Notes under the pieces: generated by a model
The model's input: the letters and a program-made list of their open reading frames with translations, nothing else
The model's database searches: none
What the model was told of the DNA's origin: nothing
DNA from: Candidatus Limnocylindrales bacterium
GTDB lineage: Bacteria > Chloroflexota > Limnocylindria > Limnocylindrales > CSP1-4
Assembly (NCBI GenBank): GCA_035760905.1
Contig: DASTSC010000132.1
Location: 7,707-71,706 of the forward strand
Direction of reading: 5' to 3'
DNA: 64,000 bases
Made by a program: the position numbers and the translations under genes
Shown here: one piece after another, positions 4,752 to 43,857 of the stretch
Position numbering within the stretch: position 1 is the first letter of the stretch
How the letters are laid out: each line of letters begins with the position of its first letter

Positions 4752-4840
4752 GCCGAGGTGGCGGAATTGGTAGACGCGCTAGCCTCAGGAGCTAGTGCCC
4801 TGTAAGGGGCGTATGGGTTCAAATCCCGTCCTCGGTACCA
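4752..4840 (+). tRNA. tRNA-Leu (anticodon CAG), long variable arm
   Basis: Cloverleaf read manually: acceptor gccgagg/cctcggt (G1-U72), D-stem gcg/cgc, anticodon stem ctagc/gctag with loop cuCAGga, T-loop ttcaaat, encoded CCA. Confidence 0.85.
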
Positions 4841-4868
4841 GTCCCTCAGGGACCGACGGCAGCACCTG

Positions 4869-4953
4869 TGCCCAGGTGGCGGAATTGGTATACGCGTACG
4901 TTTGAGGGGCGTATGAGGCAACTCATCCGGGTTCAAGTCCCGGCCTGGGCACC
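4869..4953 (+). tRNA. tRNA-Leu (anticodon GAG), long variable arm
   Basis: Acceptor gcccagg/cctgggc, anticodon stem tacgt/gcgta with loop ttGAGgg, T-loop ttcaagt, encoded CCA. Confidence 0.8.
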
Positions 4954-5241
4954 ACTCTTCTGATCACGAGAAGCGGGCGACGAGGTCGTCCGCTTCTTCG
5001 TTCTCGGCACGGGAGCCGCCCACCGTTGCCGCGGGGGAATGGTTCGGGGCGCGCGAGATCGGTCCGTGCCCTGGCAGGGAACGAGGCGCACGGGAAATGG
5101 CCTCGCCGTGTCGTCGCTTACCTACCCGAGCAACGCAAGGACGGGAGACGATCGATTTCATGCCCGGGGAGGCACAGGACCGCGGACGGGCGGGGACGGG
5201 TGGGGAGGGGAGCCTCGGTCGCGTCATAGACTTGCCGCCCG

Positions 5242-5319
5242 GGGGCGGTTAGCTCAGCTGGTCAGAGCGCCTCGCTTACACCGAGGAAGTCGGAGGTTCG
5301 AGTCCTCCACCGCCCACCA
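5242..5319 (+). tRNA. tRNA-Val (anticodon TAC)
   Basis: gggcggt acceptor pairs accgccc; tagctcagctggtcagagcg D-arm; anticodon stem cctcg/cgagg with loop cuUACac; ggttcgagtcc T-arm; encoded CCA. Confidence 0.9.
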
Positions 5320-11036: not shown

Positions 11037-11112
11037 GCCGAGATAGCTCAGTTGGTAGAGCACGCGACTGAAAATCGCGGTGTCGCCAGTTCGATTCTGG
11101 CTCTCGGCACCA
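11037..11112 (+). tRNA. tRNA-Phe (anticodon GAA)
   Basis: gccgaga/tctcggc acceptor, tagctcagttggtagagc D-arm, loop cuGAAaa, ttcgattc T-loop, CCA encoded. Confidence 0.9.
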
Positions 11113-11134
11113 CCAATCGGTGGTCGCGGTCCGG

Positions 11135-11210
11135 GCGGAAGTGGCTCAGTTGGTAGAGCATCACCTTGCCAAGGTGAGGGTCGCGGGTTCGAGTCCCGTC
11201 TTCCGCTCCA
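11135..11210 (+). tRNA. tRNA-Gly (anticodon GCC)
   Basis: gcggaag/cttccgc acceptor, anticodon stem cacct/aggtg loop tuGCCaa, ggttcgagtcc T-arm. Confidence 0.9.
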
Positions 11211-11254
11211 TTTCTTTGCCCCTCGATCCCCGATATCGTCCGAATCGCCGCCAC

Positions 11255-11338
11255 TGCCCCTTCGTCTAGTGGTAGGACAGCGGACTTTGGATCCGAGAAC
11301 CGAGGTTCGAATCCTCGAGGGGCAGCCAGGACCCGGCC
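11255..11338 (+). tRNA. tRNA-Gln (anticodon TTG)
   Basis: U1-A72 acceptor (tgcccct/aggggca) and G73 discriminator typical of tRNA-Gln; loop cuUUGga; ggttcgaatcc T-arm. Confidence 0.8.
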
Positions 11339-11352
11339 GCGCGGCGCGCTCG

Positions 11353-11429
11353 GGGCGACGTGGTGAAGTGGTTTAACACGGAGGTCTGCAAAACCTCTAT
11401 TCAGCGGTTCGAATCCGCTCGTCGCCTCC
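11353..11429 (+). tRNA. tRNA-Cys (anticodon GCA)
   Basis: ggcgacg/cgtcgcc acceptor, anticodon stem gaggt/acctc loop cuGCAaa, U73 discriminator, ggttcgaatcc T-arm. Confidence 0.85.
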
Positions 11430-11520
11430 ACCTCTGATACTCCGACGGCGCCCGCACGGGCGCCGTCTTCGTTTGCCGAGAGACGGGTGCCGCTCCGTCG
11501 ACGGTAGATTCGGCAGCGGC

Positions 11521-11607
11521 GCCGAGGTGGCGGAACCGGCAGACGCGGCCGACTTAAAATCGGCTGCCCGCAAGGGCGTGCGAGTTCAAATCTCGCCCTC
11601 GGCACCA
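11521..11607 (+). tRNA. tRNA-Leu (anticodon TAA), long variable arm
   Basis: gccgagg/cctcggc acceptor, anticodon stem gccga/tcggc loop cuUAAaa, ttcaaat T-loop. Confidence 0.85.
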
Positions 11608-11699: not shown

Positions 11700-12293
11700 T
11701 CAGCCGGCGCGATCCGAGGCGCTGTAGAGGATCCAGCCGCTGAACTCTCCGTTGTCGGCGCCGGTCCCGAACTCGTCGAGCGCGGTGCCGTGCAGCGAGC
11801 CCGACGCGTGGACGAACCGTCCGGTCCCGCCGACGATCGTCATCTGGTCCATGACGATCTCGGAGGTGCCGGCATCAGGGCGATCGCCCGGCCAGAACAG
11901 GAACGACCCCGAGTACTCGACCCAGAGCTCGTCGCCGTTGGCCGCAGTGACCGTCATCCTGCCGTCCTCGAAGGTTCCCGGCATCGGCGGCGCCGAGCGG
12001 AAGTCGAATTGCGTGCAGTGCGAGTTCAGGACGCTGACGGCGCCCAGGTGCCGCGCGACCCCGGTGCTGTCGATCGTCGTGACCCAGTCGGACGGCTGTG
12101 AGCAGCGGCCGCCAAAGGTGCTGCGATCGAGGTCCGGGGGGACGCCGGGTGCCATCTCGAGCGGGCGGTCGAGGCCCGCGGTCTGCATCTGGAACGGCAC
12201 CGCATGAGCCGCCTGGCCGCGCGTCGCCGCGGCGGGCGCCGCGAGCGCGAGCGCGAGGGTCGCTGCCGCGAACAGGGCGAGCATCCGTCGCAT
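11700..12293 (-). CDS. Hypothetical secreted protein (cleavable signal peptide)
   Basis: MRRMLALFAAATLALALAAPAAA signal peptide; 197 aa; high GC3 codon pattern; downstream of the TadZ-like gene on the same strand. Confidence 0.55.
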   Translation of the reverse strand: MRRMLALFAAATLALALAAPAAATRGQAAHAVPFQMQTAGLDRPLEMAPGVPPDLDRSTFGGRCSQPSDWVTTIDSTGVARHLGAVSVLNSHCTQFDFRSAPPMPGTFEDGRMTVTAANGDELWVEYSGSFLFWPGDRPDAGTSEIVMDQMTIVGGTGRFVHASGSLHGTALDEFGTGADNGEFSGWILYSASDRAG

Positions 12294-12514
12294 GGGCCGT
12301 CTCCTTCCCTCCCGACACGGTCCGGCGGGCGTCAGAACTGACCCGACGTCCCCTCCGCGTCGGCGCGCGGGTCGGTCTCGCCAGTGGCTCGGCGCGGTCT
12401 CGGCGGCCGGGGCTTGGGCCGCGCGTCATCGCCCCCCGCGTGAGCCTCGAGCGTCGCGGGACGGCGGGCCAGCGACAAGTGCCGAACGGCTCGTCGCCGT
12501 CGGCATCGGCGGTT

Positions 12515-37161: not shown

Positions 37162-37457
37162 GATCGCCTTTCGATGAGTGAGCACGAGGAAGCCCCGGAA
37201 CGGGCCGAGGGGGCCGATAGAATAACACGCCATCGCCCCGTCCCCTGACCGGGGCGAAGCCCATTCGGAGCGGGAGGGAGAACCTGGCGACAGGATCGTC
37301 CGACCCAGCACGCCGCGCCGCCACCGCGGGCCGTCCGGGCGCGCGGCGGCAGTGGTCGAGCGCGCCGGGCTCGGTCGCCCATCGTCGCCGCTCCGACGGC
37401 GACGGCCTCGCCAGGCAGCGCACGTCGCGATCGGCGGGTGCCGCGCCGCGGGCCCGG

Positions 37458-39155
37458 ATCTCGGTCGCGCGGACGCTGCTCGGCGCCTTCGCCGCGGCCG
37501 CCCGGAATCTCGAGCAGCACGCGGCCGAGATCAACGCGCTCAACGTCTACCCGGTCCCCGACGGCGACACCGGCTCGAACATGGTCGCGACCGTCCGGGC
37601 GGCGCTCGCCGAGGCTCGCCGGATCCCGCCGTCCCGGGTGGGCGACATGGCGGCCGCGCTCAGCTTCGGGGCGCTCATGGGCGCCCGCGGCAACTCCGGG
37701 GTCATCCTGAGCCAGCTCCTGCGGGGCATCGGCGAAGCGTCCGCGGGCAAGGAGAGCCTGAGCGGTCTCGATCTCGCCTACGCGTTCGCCGAGGGCACGC
37801 GAGCCGCGTACAGCGCGGTCGCCGTGCCGGTCGAGGGGACGATGCTCACGGTTGCCCGCGACGCGAGCGAAGCTGCCGTCGCTGCCGCCGAGCGCGGTGG
37901 CGACGTCGGCGCGGTGCTCGAGGCCGCGGTGAACGCCGCCGCCGCGTCGGTCCGCCGGACGCCGACCCTCCTCGAGATCCTCGCCCAGGCCGGTGTCGTC
38001 GACGCCGGCGGGCAGGGGCTCTACCGGCTGCTCGAGGGCGCGGCCGGTCACGACCCCGCCGCCGAGGAGACGCCGGAGCATCCGATCCCGACGATCGCCG
38101 CCGGCCCCGGCGGCGTCGGCGAGATCGTCGGCCCGGCGGCCGGAGCCGACGGCGGTCGGCAGTTCGGCTACGAGACGCTCTTCATCGTCGAGGCCCGCGA
38201 CGGGGACCGCCTCGACGCACGCGAGATCCGGTCGCGCCTCGCTGCGCTCGGCGAGTCGGTGCTCGTCGCCGGCGACGAGCACCGGGTCAAGGTGCACGTC
38301 CATGGCGAGCGGCCCGATGCGGTCATCGGCTACGGCCTGTCGCTCGGGACGCTGCGGAACATCTCGGTCGAGAACCTCGACGCCCAGGCGGCGGAGGTTC
38401 GCGACGCGCGCGAGATGCAGCTCGCCGACGACCTCGCCCGCGACCTGCCGCGGCCGGTCGAGTCGGACGGCGAGGATGCGGTCGTGTCCGACGTCCGGCA
38501 GCCCGCGATCCTCGCCGTCGTCTCCGGCGACGGCCTCGCCCGCGTCTTCCGCGCCCTCGGCGCCGACCTCCTCCTCAACGGCGGGCAGGCCGCGAACCCG
38601 AGCACCGGCGAGCTGCTGCGGGTCGCCCGGCTCGCCCGATCCCGTGAGGTCATCGTCCTGCCGAACAACCCGAACGTCCGGATGGCCGCGGAGCAGGCCG
38701 CCGCGCACTGCCCCGAGCGCCGCATCGTCGTGATCCCGACCCGCAACCCCGTCGAGGGGATCGCCGCGCTCCTCGCCCTCGATCCGTCGAAGGACGCCGA
38801 CGCGAATGCCGGACCGATGGCCGACGCCGCGCGTTCGGTCCCGTCGCTCCTCGTGACCGAGGCCGTCCGCGACGCCAGGGTCGACGGCCGTGACGTCCGG
38901 CAGGGCCAGACGATCGTCCTCGACCCGGACGAGGGGATCGTGGCCGGCGGCCCCGACGGTCCGACCGCGATCGTCGAGGCGGTCGCCCACCTGCCACTCG
39001 ACGCCGAGCTCGTGACGGTCTACACCGGTGCCGACGCGAAGCCGACCGAAACGTCCGCACTCGTCGAGCGCCTTCGAGCCGCCCGGCCCGACTCGGAGAT
39101 CGAGGTCGTCGAGGGCGGCCAGGCCCATTACCGCTACCTGATCTCGGCTGAGTAG
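37458..39155 (+). CDS. DAK2-domain fusion protein YloV/FakA-like; start codon uncertain (no ATG/GTG/TTG in frame before the conserved DGDTG motif)
   Basis: Conserved N-terminal DAK2 signature INALNVYPVPDGDTGSNM lies upstream of the first ATG (37581) in the same frame; frame is open from 37221 without canonical starts; ATC 37458 or CTG 37476 are the only candidates; C-terminal DegV/YloV-like domain present. Confidence 0.7.
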   Translation: MSVARTLLGAFAAAARNLEQHAAEINALNVYPVPDGDTGSNMVATVRAALAEARRIPPSRVGDMAAALSFGALMGARGNSGVILSQLLRGIGEASAGKESLSGLDLAYAFAEGTRAAYSAVAVPVEGTMLTVARDASEAAVAAAERGGDVGAVLEAAVNAAAASVRRTPTLLEILAQAGVVDAGGQGLYRLLEGAAGHDPAAEETPEHPIPTIAAGPGGVGEIVGPAAGADGGRQFGYETLFIVEARDGDRLDAREIRSRLAALGESVLVAGDEHRVKVHVHGERPDAVIGYGLSLGTLRNISVENLDAQAAEVRDAREMQLADDLARDLPRPVESDGEDAVVSDVRQPAILAVVSGDGLARVFRALGADLLLNGGQAANPSTGELLRVARLARSREVIVLPNNPNVRMAAEQAAAHCPERRIVVIPTRNPVEGIAALLALDPSKDADANAGPMADAARSVPSLLVTEAVRDARVDGRDVRQGQTIVLDPDEGIVAGGPDGPTAIVEAVAHLPLDAELVTVYTGADAKPTETSALVERLRAARPDSEIEVVEGGQAHYRYLISAE

Positions 39156-39261
39156 GGGAGTCGCGGCTCGCGGGTCGAGCTCCGGGGCCGCCCCGGCTGC
39201 CGCGGACCCGGGGACGCTCCTCGCGCGGCCGATCGGGCAGTCCGGGATCCAGGCCGCCGCC

Positions 39262-41382
39262 GTGCTCCGGCGGCTCGGACCGCGGCTCGGGATCCTGACC
39301 CTGCGCGACCTCCTCTTCCATCTGCCGCGCCGCTACGACGACCTGCGCGAGATGCGCCTCCTCGGCGACCTCGTCTGGGTCGCGGACGGCACGCCGGTCA
39401 GCGCCCGGGCGCGGGTGACGGACGTTCGGGTCGAGCCGGGGTTCAGGCGCCGCGTCCAGCGGACCGTCGCCCGCCTCGAGGACGAGAGCGGCTCGATCGA
39501 CGCGACCTGGTTCGGCCGCCGCTACATCGAGCGCCGGCTCCATCCGGGCGACCGCGTCGTCGTCAGCGGCCGGCTCAAGCACTTCGGGCGCCGGCTCACC
39601 CTCGACAACCCCGACTTCCAGCCCGACGCCGACGACGCCAGCCTCCTCCACGTCGGCCGGATCGTGCCGGTCTACCGCCTCACCGCGGGCCTCACCGCGG
39701 CCCGGCTGCGGACCGCGATCCGGGCCGCCCTCGACCGGGCCGGCGACGAGTACCCGGAGTACCTGCCCGATCGGATCCGGGTCGCCGAGGACCTGGCCCC
39801 GATCGGCGCGACCCTCGAGCACGCGCATTTCCCGCCCGACTTTCCCGAACGCGACGCGGCTCTCCGGCGCCTCGCCTTCGACGAGCTGCTCGCGCTCCAG
39901 GTCGGGATGGTCGCGCGCCGCCGCGAGCGTGACCGGCGCACCGCGAGCCCGATCGAGGTCACGCCCGAGCTCGACACGCGGCTGCGCGGGTCGGTCGAGG
40001 CCTCGATCTCGCGGTCGCTGCGTCGCCCGGTCGTCCTGACCGCCGACCAGGCAGCCGCGATCGTCGCCGTCGGGGCCGATCTCGCTCGCCGCCAGCCGAT
40101 GGTCCGCCTGCTCCAGGGCGACGTCGGCTCGGGCAAAACGGCGGTCGCGGCCTGGGCACTCGGCGGGGCCGCGGCGTCCGGGCTCCAGGGGGCGCTGCTC
40201 GCGCCGACCGACCTCCTCGCCCGCCAGCACGCGGCGACCGTCGGCGCGCTGCTCGAGGACGCCGGGATCGGGGTGACGCTCCTCACGGGCTCGCTCAGCG
40301 GCGCCGGGACGCGCAAGGCCCTCGACCAGATCGCGTCCGGGCAGGCAGGGGTCGTCGTCGGAACGCACGCCCTCATGTCGGAACGCGTCGAGTTCGCCCG
40401 CCTGGGGCTCGTCGTGATCGACGAGCAGCACCGGTTCGGGGTCGAGCAGCGGGCGCAGCTCGAGGCAAAGGCCGCTGACTCGCCGCACGTCCTGCTCATG
40501 ACGGCGACGCCGATCCCCCGGACGCTCGGGCAGGTCCTCTATGCCGACCTCGACGTGTCGAACCTGCGGACGCCGCCGGAGGGGCGGCTCCGGGTCGGGA
40601 CCGGCATTCGCAACCCGGAGCAGGCGTCGAAGGTCTGGGAGCTCGTCGAGAGCGAGGCCCGGGCGGGACGCGCATCGTTCGTCGTCGTCCCGGCAATCGA
40701 CGAGTCCGAGGACGACGGGTCGGTCGCCGCGACGACCGAGGCCGAGCGGCTGCGCCATCTCCTCCCGGACCTGCGCGTCGGTCTCGTCCACGGCCGGATG
40801 AAGGCCGCGGAGCGTGACGCCGAGGTCGGCCGCCTGCGCGACGGCGAACTCGACGTCCTCGTCGGAACCACGGTTCTCGAGGTCGGCGTCGACGTCCCGC
40901 GCGCGACGGTCATGGTCGTCGAGGCGGCCGAGCGCTTCGGGCTCGCCCAGCTCCACCAGCTCCGCGGCCGGGTGGGCCGGGGCACGGAACAGTCGTACGC
41001 GGCGCTGCTGTCGACGGCGGCGCCGAGCAACGAGGCCTGGCGGCGCCTGACCGACGGCGACGTTCCGCCCGAGACCCCCGAGCAGGCGCGGCTCGTGGCG
41101 CTGGCCCGGACGACCGACGGTTTCGAGCTCGCCGAGCAGGACTGGGAGATCCGGCGGGAAGGCGACGTCCTCGGCTTCGACCAGAGCGGCCTGCCGTCGC
41201 TCCGCGTCGCTTCGCTCGCTCGCGAAGGCGACCGCGAGCTCGCGGTCCGGGCGCGCCGGCACGCCGAGGCCCTCCTCGACGAGGCCGGGCGACTCGGCCC
41301 GGACGAGGCCGCGCTCGACCGGGAGCTGCGGACCGGCTGGCTCCGCGGCCTGTGGGCGGGCGAGGTCGCGGCGGGTGTATGA
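39262..41382 (+). CDS. recG: ATP-dependent DNA helicase RecG
   Basis: N-terminal wedge domain, helicase motifs I (GDVGSGKT), II (DEQH), VI (QLRGRVGRG); GTG start (first start codon after upstream in-frame stop). Confidence 0.9.
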   Translation: MLRRLGPRLGILTLRDLLFHLPRRYDDLREMRLLGDLVWVADGTPVSARARVTDVRVEPGFRRRVQRTVARLEDESGSIDATWFGRRYIERRLHPGDRVVVSGRLKHFGRRLTLDNPDFQPDADDASLLHVGRIVPVYRLTAGLTAARLRTAIRAALDRAGDEYPEYLPDRIRVAEDLAPIGATLEHAHFPPDFPERDAALRRLAFDELLALQVGMVARRRERDRRTASPIEVTPELDTRLRGSVEASISRSLRRPVVLTADQAAAIVAVGADLARRQPMVRLLQGDVGSGKTAVAAWALGGAAASGLQGALLAPTDLLARQHAATVGALLEDAGIGVTLLTGSLSGAGTRKALDQIASGQAGVVVGTHALMSERVEFARLGLVVIDEQHRFGVEQRAQLEAKAADSPHVLLMTATPIPRTLGQVLYADLDVSNLRTPPEGRLRVGTGIRNPEQASKVWELVESEARAGRASFVVVPAIDESEDDGSVAATTEAERLRHLLPDLRVGLVHGRMKAAERDAEVGRLRDGELDVLVGTTVLEVGVDVPRATVMVVEAAERFGLAQLHQLRGRVGRGTEQSYAALLSTAAPSNEAWRRLTDGDVPPETPEQARLVALARTTDGFELAEQDWEIRREGDVLGFDQSGLPSLRVASLAREGDRELAVRARRHAEALLDEAGRLGPDEAALDRELRTGWLRGLWAGEVAAGV

Positions 41383-41406
41383 GCGGCCTGGCCCGAGGCG
41401 GAGCGG

Positions 41407-42018
41407 ATGGCTGACGCCGGTCGGGTGATCGCCGGCTCCGCGCGCGGGACACGGCTCGCCGCACCGGGCAGCGGAACGCGGCCCCTCGGCGACCGGGTCA
41501 AGCAGACGCTCTTCGCGATCCTCGAGCCCGACCTGCCCGGCGCTCGCGTGCTCGACCTGTTCGCCGGCAGCGGCGCGGCCGGGATCGAGGCCCTGTCGCG
41601 CGGGGCGGCGGCCGCCGTGTTCGTCGAGCGGGACCCGCGCGCCGTCGCCGCGATCCGGGAGAACCTCGCCCGCGCCGGCTTCGGCCGGCCGGCGGCGCTC
41701 ATCGTCCCGGCTGACGTGCTCGCGTTCATCGGGCGACCGCTCGAGGAGCACCCTCCCTTCGATATCGTCATCGCCGACCCGCCCTACGCCGAGCCCGAGG
41801 CGCTCGACCCGATCCTCCGCCGTCTCGGCGCCCCCATCGGCCCGCTCGTCGACGGGGCCCGTGTCGTCGTGAAGCACTTCTGGCGGACGCAGCTGCCCGA
41901 CCGGGTCGGGCTGCTAGCATCCGAGCGCGTTCGGCGCTTCGGCGAGACCGCGCTGACGTTCTACCGGCGCCGGCCGGCCGAGCCCGGCCCGACCGAGGAT
42001 CGAGCGGAGGCGAGATGA
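41407..42018 (+). CDS. rsmD: 16S rRNA (guanine966-N2)-methyltransferase RsmD
   Basis: LDLFAGSGAAGIEALSRGA SAM motif and DPPY catalytic motif. Confidence 0.85.
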   Translation: MADAGRVIAGSARGTRLAAPGSGTRPLGDRVKQTLFAILEPDLPGARVLDLFAGSGAAGIEALSRGAAAAVFVERDPRAVAAIRENLARAGFGRPAALIVPADVLAFIGRPLEEHPPFDIVIADPPYAEPEALDPILRRLGAPIGPLVDGARVVVKHFWRTQLPDRVGLLASERVRRFGETALTFYRRRPAEPGPTEDRAEAR

Positions 42019-42518
42019 CCATCGCCGTCTACCCGGGCTCGTTCGACCCGATCACGCTCGGCCACCTCGACGTCATCGACCGGGCGACGCGCGTGTTCGA
42101 CCGGCTCGTCGTCGGCGTCCTCGTCAACCCCCGCAAGGAGCCGCTGCTCGACACGGATCGCCGGGTCGCGATCGTCCGCGAGGCGATCGCCGGCCGCGAA
42201 TCGGCCGGCCGCGTCGGTGTCGAGGCGTTCGAGGGGCTGACGGTCGAGTTCGCCCGGTCGGTCGGCGCCCGCTGGGTCGTCCGGGGCCTCCGAGCGGTGT
42301 CGGACTTCGAGCTCGAGCTCCAGCTGGCCCAGACGAACCGCGTCCTCGCGCCCGAGATCGATGCCGTCTTCTTCATGACCGCCCTCGAGCTCGCCTACGT
42401 CAGCTCGAGCCTCGCCCGGGAGATCGCGGCGTTCGGCGGCGACGTGTCGGCGCTCGTCCCGGACGCGGCGGCCGCGGCCCTCCGGGAGCGCTTCGGGCGG
42501 TCCGGCCCCGTGCGATAA
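42015..42518 (+). CDS. coaD: Phosphopantetheine adenylyltransferase
   Basis: YPGSFDPITLGHLDVI HxGH nucleotidyltransferase motif, ISSSLAREIA; overlaps rsmD stop. Confidence 0.9.
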   Translation: MTIAVYPGSFDPITLGHLDVIDRATRVFDRLVVGVLVNPRKEPLLDTDRRVAIVREAIAGRESAGRVGVEAFEGLTVEFARSVGARWVVRGLRAVSDFELELQLAQTNRVLAPEIDAVFFMTALELAYVSSSLAREIAAFGGDVSALVPDAAAAALRERFGRSGPVR

Positions 42519-42557
42519 TCCGCGCGACCCGGCGCCGCGTCATCGGAGGGCGGACCG

Positions 42558-43118
42558 ATCGACATCATCTTCCTCGTCGAGCGCCTCGAGTCGCTCCTCG
42601 CGAACGGCAAGAAGCTGCCGCTGACGAACAACGTCGTCGTCGACCAGAACGCGGCCCTCGGGCTCGTCGACGAGCTTCGGGCGGCGGTCCCCGAGGAGGT
42701 TCGGGCCGCGAAGCGGATCAATTCCGAGGGCGAGCGGATCCTCGACAAGGCCCAGGAGGAGGCCGAGCGGATCATCGCCCGGGCCCAGGAGCAGGCGACC
42801 TTCCTCATCGACGAGCGTGGCCTCACCCAGGCCGCCGAGGAGGAGAGTCGCCGGATCATCGAGCGCGCGGAGCGCGACGCCGAGGAGATCCGGCGTGGCG
42901 CCGACGAGTACGCGGTCAATGTCCTGGTCGGGCTCGAGGGCGACCTGGTGAAAACGCTCGGCAGCGTCAAGAAGGGGATCGCGATGCTCGACGAGCGCCG
43001 CGCGGAGCTGTCCGCGGAGCCCGGCGATGCCGGGTCGTTCATCGCCGAGGCGGACCGCAACGGTCATGCCCGCGACGTCGACGAGGCGGAGGGGACCTCG
43101 CAGCCGGCGAGGCTGTGA
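42558..43118 (+). CDS. Conserved coiled-coil protein (DivIVA/ATP-synthase-b-like helical protein found between coaD and yceD); non-canonical start, not in supplied ORF track
   Basis: Frame 0 open from coaD TAA (42516) to TGA 43118; translation IDIIFLVERLESLLANGKKLPLTNNVVVDQNAALGLVDELRAAVPEEVRAAKRINSEGERILDKAQEEAERII... is heptad-rich with coding GC3 bias; no ATG/GTG/TTG in frame until codon about 130; ATC 42558 lies 7 nt after GGAGGG. Confidence 0.5.
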   Translation: MDIIFLVERLESLLANGKKLPLTNNVVVDQNAALGLVDELRAAVPEEVRAAKRINSEGERILDKAQEEAERIIARAQEQATFLIDERGLTQAAEEESRRIIERAERDAEEIRRGADEYAVNVLVGLEGDLVKTLGSVKKGIAMLDERRAELSAEPGDAGSFIAEADRNGHARDVDEAEGTSQPARL

Positions 43119-43125
43119 TCGTCCG

Positions 43126-43749
43126 ATGAGCCCGCGTCCCTCGCGCTCCCCGCGGCCGGCGCGCTCCCCGCGGCCCGCGGCGACGACCTCGCGCGACGCC
43201 GCCGACGCGCTCACGTTCCCGGTCGCCGGCCTGCTCGCCGAGCCACCCGGAACGGTGCGCGAGGACGCGATCGCCCCGGTCTGGGTCGACGCCGGCGAGG
43301 AGACCGCGCTCGCGGAGCCGGTCGCCGGCACCCTCCGTCTGGCGCGAACGAACCGCGGCCTGCTCGTGGACGCCGAGCTCCACACCGCGCTCGCGACCGA
43401 GTGCAGCCGCTGCCTCCGCGACATCGTCGTCCCGCTCGACCTGCGGATCGAGGAGGAGGCCCTGCCCTCGGTCGAGCTCGCGTCCGGGCTGCCGGTCGAC
43501 ACCGCGATCGAACCCGACGTCGTCCGCCTGAGCGACGCCCACGAGCTTGAGCTGCTGCCGCTCGTCCGCGAGGCGATCTGGCTGGCCCAACCGATCGCGC
43601 CCGTCTGCCGTGACGACTGTCCCGGGCTGTGCGCCGAGTGCGGGCGACCGCTCGACGAGGGCGAGCACGACCACGGGCCGCCCGAGATCGACCCACGCTT
43701 CGAGGCGCTCCGCGGCTTCACGGTCGACGGAGACGCCGATCCCGAATAG
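43126..43749 (+). CDS. yceD: YceD/DUF177 family protein (23S rRNA accumulation protein)
   Basis: C-terminal CxxC...CxxC (ECSRCLRD ... CPGLCAECGRPL) acidic DUF177 architecture; immediately precedes rpmF as in the conserved yceD-rpmF-plsX operon. Confidence 0.75.
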   Translation: MSPRPSRSPRPARSPRPAATTSRDAADALTFPVAGLLAEPPGTVREDAIAPVWVDAGEETALAEPVAGTLRLARTNRGLLVDAELHTALATECSRCLRDIVVPLDLRIEEEALPSVELASGLPVDTAIEPDVVRLSDAHELELLPLVREAIWLAQPIAPVCRDDCPGLCAECGRPLDEGEHDHGPPEIDPRFEALRGFTVDGDADPE

Positions 43750-43857
43750 ACTCCCCACTCGGTGCCAGCCGCACTCCCGCGCGGCGCCACTCCCGAGAAC
43801 GACTGACGGCCCGTTCGGGCCGGATCGACGACCCGGCTCGAAAGGAGGCCAAACCCG

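Follow-up and report, generated by a model that had tools for sequence, protein, structure and literature searches.

Between coaD and yceD, in a 64,000-nucleotide (nt) stretch of Candidatus Limnocylindrales DNA (73% GC; hereafter the window), lies a gene, here called Gene X, that very probably begins at an ATC codon. Profile matches and the list of open reading frames (ORFs) give the gene order recG, rsmD, coaD, X, yceD, rpmF, plsX. Upstream, coaD (pantetheine-phosphate adenylyltransferase; 42015–42518, plus strand, as are all features of the locus that follow; TIGR01510, 181.7 bits against a cutoff of 103; PF01467) ends in a TAA at 42516–42518. It is followed by a non-conserved intergenic leader (42519–42544), a GGAGGG Shine-Dalgarno sequence (42545–42550), a 7-nt spacer (42551–42557; 8 nt when counted from the GGAGG core), the putative initiation codon ATC (AUC in the mRNA; 42558–42560) and the remainder of a coding sequence of 186 codons and a TGA stop (42558–43118, stop at 43116–43118). 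Downstream, yceD (DUF177; 43127–43749; PF02620, 75.8 bits) has its ATG 8 nt past the Gene X stop, and rpmF (ribosomal protein L32; 43858–44061; PF01783 recorded on its orthologues) carries a GGAGG 9 nt ahead of its ATG. No promoter or terminator consensus was found between the genes of the rsmD–rpmF stretch. On the comparative grounds set out below, we take Gene X to be a real protein-coding gene of an rsmD-coaD-X-yceD-rpmF-plsX operon.

A sequence-only reading had drawn attention to this gene, and its description of the locus agrees with the coordinates that we checked. The 199 codons past the coaD TAA (42519–43115) are open in the frame of coaD and closed by the TGA at 43116–43118, a frame of 600 nt whose translation is the peptide quoted there, and the ATC stands 7 nt past the GGAGGG with 186 amino acids to the stop. 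No ATG, GTG or TTG occurs in any frame from 42519 to about 42580. In frame, a canonical start is first reached with the GTG at 42948–42950, codon 144 of the open frame and codon 131 from the ATC, where the earlier reading had put it at about codon 130; because of this, the mechanical ORF list holds a 56-amino-acid fragment alone. The 143 codons ahead of the GTG have GC contents of 0.77, 0.41 and 0.93 at the first, second and third codon positions, a pattern like that of the real genes of the window, and the open frame carries a coding signature throughout.

A homology search with the 186-amino-acid translation, a check that the earlier reading had suggested, confirmed that Gene X belongs to a large family, with 2994 homologues at E ≤ 1e-3 in a 90%-clustered database and 4199 among 50%-identity cluster representatives. 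The homologues cover residues 1–150, N-terminal motif included, and the first methionine (Met1) of distant homologues falls in the ATC column; the sequence-only reading had considered that homologues might start well downstream and lack similarity to residues 1–130, whereas residues 1–150 are the conserved part. Full-length homology, the shared motif and gene position place Gene X in a helical family, (M/I)DILxLVDRLE, of the coaD-yceD-rpmF locus. The order coaD-X-yceD-rpmF was seen in loci L081–L087, L090 and L091 (relatives are cited by such locus numbers), and with plsX it is kept even around members only 38–40% identical; in the gene tables of L081–L087, the Gene X stop and the yceD start overlap by 4 nt. 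The gene had been described as a conserved actinobacterial or Gram-positive coiled-coil protein next to yceD-rpmF. The context holds, but the taxon was imprecise: close homologues (68–88% identity) are Chloroflexota metagenome-assembled genomes (MAGs), mostly labelled Candidatus Limnocylindrales or Limnocylindria, no actinobacterial or "Gram-positive" sequences appear among the named close relatives retrieved, and the distant members are metagenomic sequences. Two records labelled Verrucomicrobiia (L028 and L065) hold a typical Limnocylindria-type X locus, 72–73% identical, with GGAGG or GAGG and then ATC; their label probably reflects mis-binning or mislabelling.

We compared the window with the DNA of 80 species representatives (Limnocylindria, Chloroflexota), anchored on the conserved motif, for a total of 81 sequences. 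From about codon 5 onward, many codons are 100% fixed in amino acid while using three to five synonymous codons (five at R8, five at L19 and four at P20), from which it follows that the N-terminal region of Gene X is translated and under purifying selection. The codon homologous to 42558–42560 is ATC in 77 sequences, ACG in three and CTG in one, and ATG, GTG or TTG occupies this position in none of the 81. Although ATC is one nucleotide from ATG and MAG assemblies can hold errors, the suggestion of the sequence-only reading that an assembly error hides the start codon has almost no probability left, as has the idea that Gene X is a pseudogene: 81 independent assemblies, from various species and projects, share a non-canonical codon here, and purifying selection on the protein is clear. 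Scarcely more credible is translation from a canonical codon further along (for the window, GTG 42948), with the conserved upstream part untranslated. Such a start is what ORF finders report, and some database entries are truncated likewise, but, depending on the species, the nearest canonical codon downstream falls at any point between codon 6 and codon 130, inside the conserved core, and residues 1–150, which form that core, show the synonymous variation typical of coding sequence. Since it lies within the conserved long helix of the protein, we do not regard the GTG at 42948 as the real start of Gene X.

The sequence ahead of the start codon behaves as a ribosome-binding site. GGAGG is present in 79 of the 81 sequences, at a spacing of 8 nt in 67, 9 nt in nine and 7 nt in three, and single-nucleotide insertions and deletions in the spacer shift its frame relative to the ATC (CTGGAGGGCACTCCG-ATC, AGGAGGGCACCAGCC-ATC and CCCGGAGGGTCTCCC-ATC). 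Because GGAGG thus occurs in shifting frames, it is a Shine-Dalgarno sequence and not coding, and the apparent "E-G" residues are untranslated. Information content does not exceed 0.6 bit at any position upstream of −14 and then rises to 1.4–2.0 bits at −13 to −9, such that nucleotide conservation sets in at −13, at the GGAGG itself. We therefore find no sign of constraint in the leader (42519–42544), which, as judged from these alignments, is open in the frame of coaD by chance only. The spacer at 42551–42557 and the homologous spacers of L001–L080 are partly conserved (consensus CACTCCG) though non-coding.

Canonical alternatives to the ATC are mostly absent. In 54 of the 81 sequences, the stretch from the closest in-frame upstream stop to the codon of the ATC column holds no canonical start; in L014 (TAG) and L072 (TAA), an in-frame stop is found just six codons upstream of the start codon, and a canonical codon occurs within 10 codons of the start in one species only (L020), where it sits inside the Shine-Dalgarno sequence. 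The properties of a conserved near-cognate start directed by a Shine-Dalgarno sequence, namely the lack of a canonical start, proper spacing and alignment with Met1, and conservation across species, are all found at this codon. Rare ATC initiation, one of three explanations that the sequence-only reading had put forward, is the one that agrees with these data: ATC is kept in the Met1 column, GGAGG stands 7–9 nt ahead in any frame, upstream stops are nearby, and most species offer no canonical alternative. We consider it very likely, from this comparison, that translation of Gene X starts at the ATC at 42558–42560 behind a strong ribosome-binding site.

The third explanation offered earlier, readthrough of the coaD TAA to yield a CoaD-X fusion protein, draws on the fact that Gene X lies in the frame of coaD with a single stop between them, both in the window and in a few relatives (L001, L022 and L024). 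Among the 67 loci with a same-strand upstream coaD, though, the frame of the X start relative to coaD is 0, +1 and +2 in 27, 19 and 21 cases, a random distribution; TGA is the usual coaD stop, the gap between the genes varies and can hold inserted genes, the 13-codon linker is not conserved, and the distant homologues are free-standing proteins that begin at Met1. We regard such a fusion as about as improbable as an assembly error, and the shared frame in the window as, by this comparison, a coincidence.

A separate proposal is that ribosomes finishing coaD reinitiate at the AUC in place of de novo binding by 30S subunits. The end of coaD lies 33–100 nt upstream of Gene X in most loci, the two genes have no promoter or terminator consensus between them, and coupling is common in operons of this kind. 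Against this, the gap between coaD and X varies, often exceeding 70 nt and in some loci running to several hundred nt or beyond; genes are inserted between the two (in L081 ABC transporter genes, in L084 a gene on the opposite strand) while the GGAGG and ATC are unchanged; 13 of the 81 loci have no coaD within 1.5 kb; and the conserved Shine-Dalgarno sequence speaks for independent 30S recruitment. Coupled reinitiation after coaD could contribute but cannot be required, and we give it a small probability as the principal mode of initiation.

Initiation at a nearby non-canonical codon, such as the ATC at codon 3 or 4 (42564 or 42567), would mean that residue 1 is not the N-terminus. These codons are themselves invariant or nearly so (81/81 and 77/81 sequences, respectively), and a choice among near-cognate codons is not resolvable from sequence alone. 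They lie, however, 14–17 nt from the GGAGG, against a spacing of 4–9 nt for the canonical genes of the window; homologues have their Met1 at codon 1, and conservation of both D2 and I3 in the family as a whole is 90% or more. This alternative also appears improbable, if marginally less so than reinitiation, and initiation at codon 1 remains by far the better account.

In the first six codons of Gene X, G is scarce and synonymous variation is reduced, in keeping with selection for accessibility. Folding of the initiation region is not more favourable than that of dinucleotide shuffles, and if anything less favourable (z = +0.3 to +1.3); the region behaves as open. RNAfold draws a Shine-Dalgarno hairpin in many of the sequences, and a hairpin that would hide this element, by pairing of GGAG with CTCC in the spacer or of GGAGGG with the UCUUCC of codons 3–5, was considered and rejected, as the comparison with shuffles does not support it.

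The wider family places the ATC in register with canonical starts. Distant homologues (34–48% identity) begin M-D-I-L-x-L-V-D-R-L-E, and in our alignment A1 the first residue of 16 of the 27 distant homologues, M or V, falls in the I1 column of the window. The sequence-only reading had expected homologues to start with Met-x-IDI; some do begin in this manner (Met-x-(x)-I-D-I), but most start M-D-I-L, with the ATC occupying the Met column itself. A second metagenome scan, in which only distant members served as the query (alignment A2), returned 80 diverse loci, 79 of which could be anchored. Their start column holds ATG in 55, GTG in four, ATC in 17 and ATA in three, and all 79 have a Shine-Dalgarno sequence about 5–10 nt upstream of it. 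Members at intermediate distances also vary, with ATC in L085 (71% identity), ATA in L087 (64%) and GTG in L088 (49%), and the distant L090, L091 and L092 have a Shine-Dalgarno sequence, 6–8 nt and then ATC, one of them with a TAA six codons upstream. A neighbour-joining tree built from 166 sequences and analysed by Fitch parsimony yields about nine switches between canonical and non-canonical codons, a count that is approximate, as such a tree of a 145-amino-acid helical protein is unreliable. Across these alignments the ribosome-binding site is constant, and the codon behind it changes: most of the family has AUG, several lineages have AUC or AUA, and Limnocylindria have AUC throughout.

The distant AUC/AUA lineages have an extended Shine-Dalgarno motif, AAGGAGGTGA. 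Among distant members, the median pairing energy between the Shine-Dalgarno sequence and 16S ribosomal RNA is −16.6 kcal/mol for AUC/AUA starts versus −9.5 kcal/mol for AUG starts (Mann-Whitney p = 1.5e-8, uncorrected for phylogeny and with a generic 16S tail assumed), which suggests that a stronger Shine-Dalgarno sequence compensates for a weak start in these lineages. Limnocylindria have an ordinary GGAGG(G) of 5–6 nt, with a median of −10.1 kcal/mol, and for this reason net initiation in the class should be genuinely weak. In many ATC lineages, a GTG at −3 sits within the extended motif GGAGGTGA. Members with ATC or ATA starts and the extended motif include L093–L099, L103, L114, L122, L124, L163 and L166 (locus positions ~580–603), and gene callers take the GTG embedded in AAGGAGGTGA as the start, producing N-termini such as "VVSIDIL..." and "MKGGITIDIL...".

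Several observations weigh against our interpretation of the start. ATC is the near-exclusive isoleucine codon in a clade of 73% GC, and its identity alone is weak evidence; further ATC codons follow at codons 3 and 4; and the ACG and CTG variants are too few, representing possibly two events, to prove a near-cognate constraint. We considered these variants as such proof and set them aside, given their small number, their possible non-independence and the fact that they are ordinary threonine and leucine codons in this clade. The idea of a compensating, strong Shine-Dalgarno sequence fits the distant AUC/AUA lineages only, as the Limnocylindria sequence hardly exceeds that of AUG-starting relatives in strength. 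Moreover, the start is placed by comparison among organisms that are uncultured MAGs, and any regulatory rationale for it, whether sensing of initiation factor 3 (IF3) or stoichiometry, is pure inference, in which our confidence is much lower than in the start site.

The protein predicted from this start has a coherent architecture. An AlphaFold2 model built from a 32-sequence alignment (mean predicted local distance difference test score, pLDDT, 87) shows an N-terminal module (residues 1–29; 42558–42644) with a helix at residues 3–15 and a β-hairpin at about 18–27 (pLDDT ~90 or higher), followed by a single long α-helix, presumably the coiled-coil part (residues 30–153; 42645–43016; pLDDT 93–98), and an acidic C-terminal tail (43017–43115) that is disordered and of low confidence in the model (pLDDT 46–61) and variable in length in alignment A1. 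The N-terminal module contains the most conserved motif of the protein, (M/I)DIxxL[VI][DE]RLE...G..xP, in which L6 and L10 are invariant and D2, I3, E11 and P21 near-invariant in alignment A1. Pfam and NCBIfam gave nothing above threshold; the best matches, far below their cutoffs, were to ATP synthase b, FliH and DivIVA coiled coils, and no PDB relatives of the protein were found by sequence search or by fold (Foldseek). In some sources, homologues go by the name "DivIVA" or "ATP synthase b". The likeness to both lies in a long α-helical, coiled-coil-like sequence with weak, sub-threshold profile matches, whereas Gene X belongs to a yceD-rpmF operon, not to atp or division clusters. We rejected DivIVA (PF05103, 14 against a cutoff of 28 bits; NF050102, 19.4 against 260) and F0F1 ATP synthase subunit b (TIGR01144, 21.7 against 65.5 bits; the neighbours are coaD, yceD and rpmF, not an atp operon), and both names are unsupported. 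A role tied to YceD and L32, and hence to large-subunit biogenesis, is a reasonable guess.

Other features of the window stand apart from this locus. A second gene, similar to yloV/fakA (37163–37580; ORF 37221–39155, plus strand; TIGR03599, 510 bits), lacks a canonical start at the place that homology requires: the first ATG in its frame, at 37578, falls within the conserved DGDTGSNM motif, and candidate starts are a CTG at 37284, 5 nt past GGGAGGG, and an ATC at 37458. In the relatives L081, L083 and L084, the normal ATG of yloV overlaps the stop codon of an Asp23 gene that precedes it, and this Asp23 gene is absent from the window; the anomaly probably reflects a deletion or rearrangement in this one genome, not a clade-wide trait. 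A metagenome scan with the YloV of the window as query found no relatives. A genome-wide habit of non-canonical starts was considered and rejected, as a coding-signature ORF scan of the window gave only X and yloV with long start-less leaders. The window also contains a c-di-GMP-II-GAG riboswitch aptamer (RF03169; 12361–12445, minus strand; 60.9 bits against a gathering score of 40) upstream of the ORF at 11700–12425 (minus strand), and two plus-strand tRNA clusters, at 4752–5319 (Leu-CAG, Leu-GAG, Val-TAC) and 11037–11607 (Phe, Gly-GCC, Gln-TTG, Cys, Leu-TAA); no initiator tRNA was found in the 64 kb. Long minus-strand "ORFs", among them 38650–41877 (1075 amino acids) and 42540–43790 (416 amino acids), overlap recG, rsmD, X and yceD; because 73% GC leaves few stop codons, these are by-products and not genes.

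The literature on Limnocylindria start codons and on AUC/ATC starts yielded no report of the Gene X case. To our knowledge, very few natural bacterial genes that conserve an AUC start have been documented. Translational attenuation by a near-cognate start is a known type, represented by infC, pcnB, sigR and ccpN, and what is new here is the gene family, the AUC codon, its conservation across a class and the repeated exchange of AUG and AUH codons at one ribosome-binding site. In E. coli, initiation at AUC, AUA, AUU and CUG reaches about 1–2% of the AUG level (range 0.02–3%), N-terminal methionine was detected by mass spectrometry for AUC and ACG starts, and the only confirmed natural cases are infC and pcnB, both with AUU (10.1101/063800). 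Gene X resembles infC, which encodes IF3, and pcnB in its near-cognate AUH codon behind a Shine-Dalgarno sequence; in those genes such a codon limits translation, and IF3 discriminates against codons of this kind. Gene X differs in having AUC in place of AUU, in belonging to another gene family and in a start known from sequence. In staphylococci, the conserved AUU or AUA starts of cvfC1, ccpN and infC, each with a strong extended Shine-Dalgarno sequence, give approximately 10–30% of AUG output (PMC13009471). The Staphylococcus and Bacillus genes ccpN (AUA), cvfC1 (AUU) and infC (AUA) share with Gene X the conservation across species of both the start and a strong, well-spaced Shine-Dalgarno sequence, and the distant AUC/AUA lineages of the X family also have the extended AAGGAGGTGA. 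Those starts, however, were mapped by Ribo-RET and reporters and that of Gene X by comparison, and their motif is extended whereas that of Limnocylindria is an ordinary 5–6 nt GGAGG(G). Streptomyces sigR offers a further parallel, with a conserved GUC start that is repressed by IF3 and sets the SigR:RsrA stoichiometry (PMC5472188). Both are clade-wide, conserved non-canonical starts in high-GC bacteria, and the sigR start sets the ratio of co-transcribed partners; the codon there is GUC, not AUC, and the sigR/rsrA logic is known, whereas the partner of X, possibly YceD or L32, is guessed from gene order.

With these precedents in mind, we propose a mechanism for Gene X in which the GGAGGG 7 nt upstream would position the 30S subunit with the AUC in the P site. 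The initiator tRNA would pair with AUC through a third-position mismatch and the protein would start with formylmethionine (fMet), as the E. coli data suggest. The rate of initiation at AUC might be expected to be no more than a few percent of that at AUG, with IF3 discriminating against it, and a conserved weak start would hold the Gene X product at a low level and restrict it in relation to coaD, which is co-transcribed, and to yceD and rpmF downstream; this level may also be sensitive to initiation fidelity or IF3 activity. The alignments show where this probable start lies, the ribosome-binding site, the conservation of both, and the repeated exchange between ATG and ATC or ATA at the same site across the family; we infer fMet decoding, low output, IF3 sensitivity and regulatory purpose. 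The product of Gene X is probably held at a low, IF3-dependent level.

One consequence of this start is that Gene X is mis-annotated in essentially every database entry that we examined. Gene finders miss or mis-start the gene because its start is a weak ATC behind a strong ribosome-binding site. Among the 120 best database homologues, none begins at the inferred ATC and 116 carry 5–132 spurious extra residues upstream (median 32), in which the coaD stop region is often translated in another frame, with strings such as "...RAII..." and "...CDN..." as the result; other entries are truncated (for example MFLVERLE, MERLESL and MTNNVV), and others are missed. A homology-anchored rule of GGAGG, 7–9 nt and ATC would fix thousands of records and have practical value for the annotation of Chloroflexota MAGs.

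Our findings also bear on the biology of the family. With at least 80 species of one class keeping an AUC start, and about nine switches between AUG and AUC or AUA, the family offers a good natural system for the study of selection on start-codon strength. More speculatively, and with odds that we judge to be well against it, the weak AUC/AUA start may be no accident but a selected and repeatedly evolved IF3-sensitive device, which would link the level of X, and through the stop/start overlap also that of YceD and perhaps L32, to initiation fidelity or the state of ribosome assembly, making X a new component or sensor of large-subunit biogenesis in Chloroflexota. As a widely conserved neighbour of the ribosome-related yceD-rpmF genes, the Gene X protein is a candidate for functional study.

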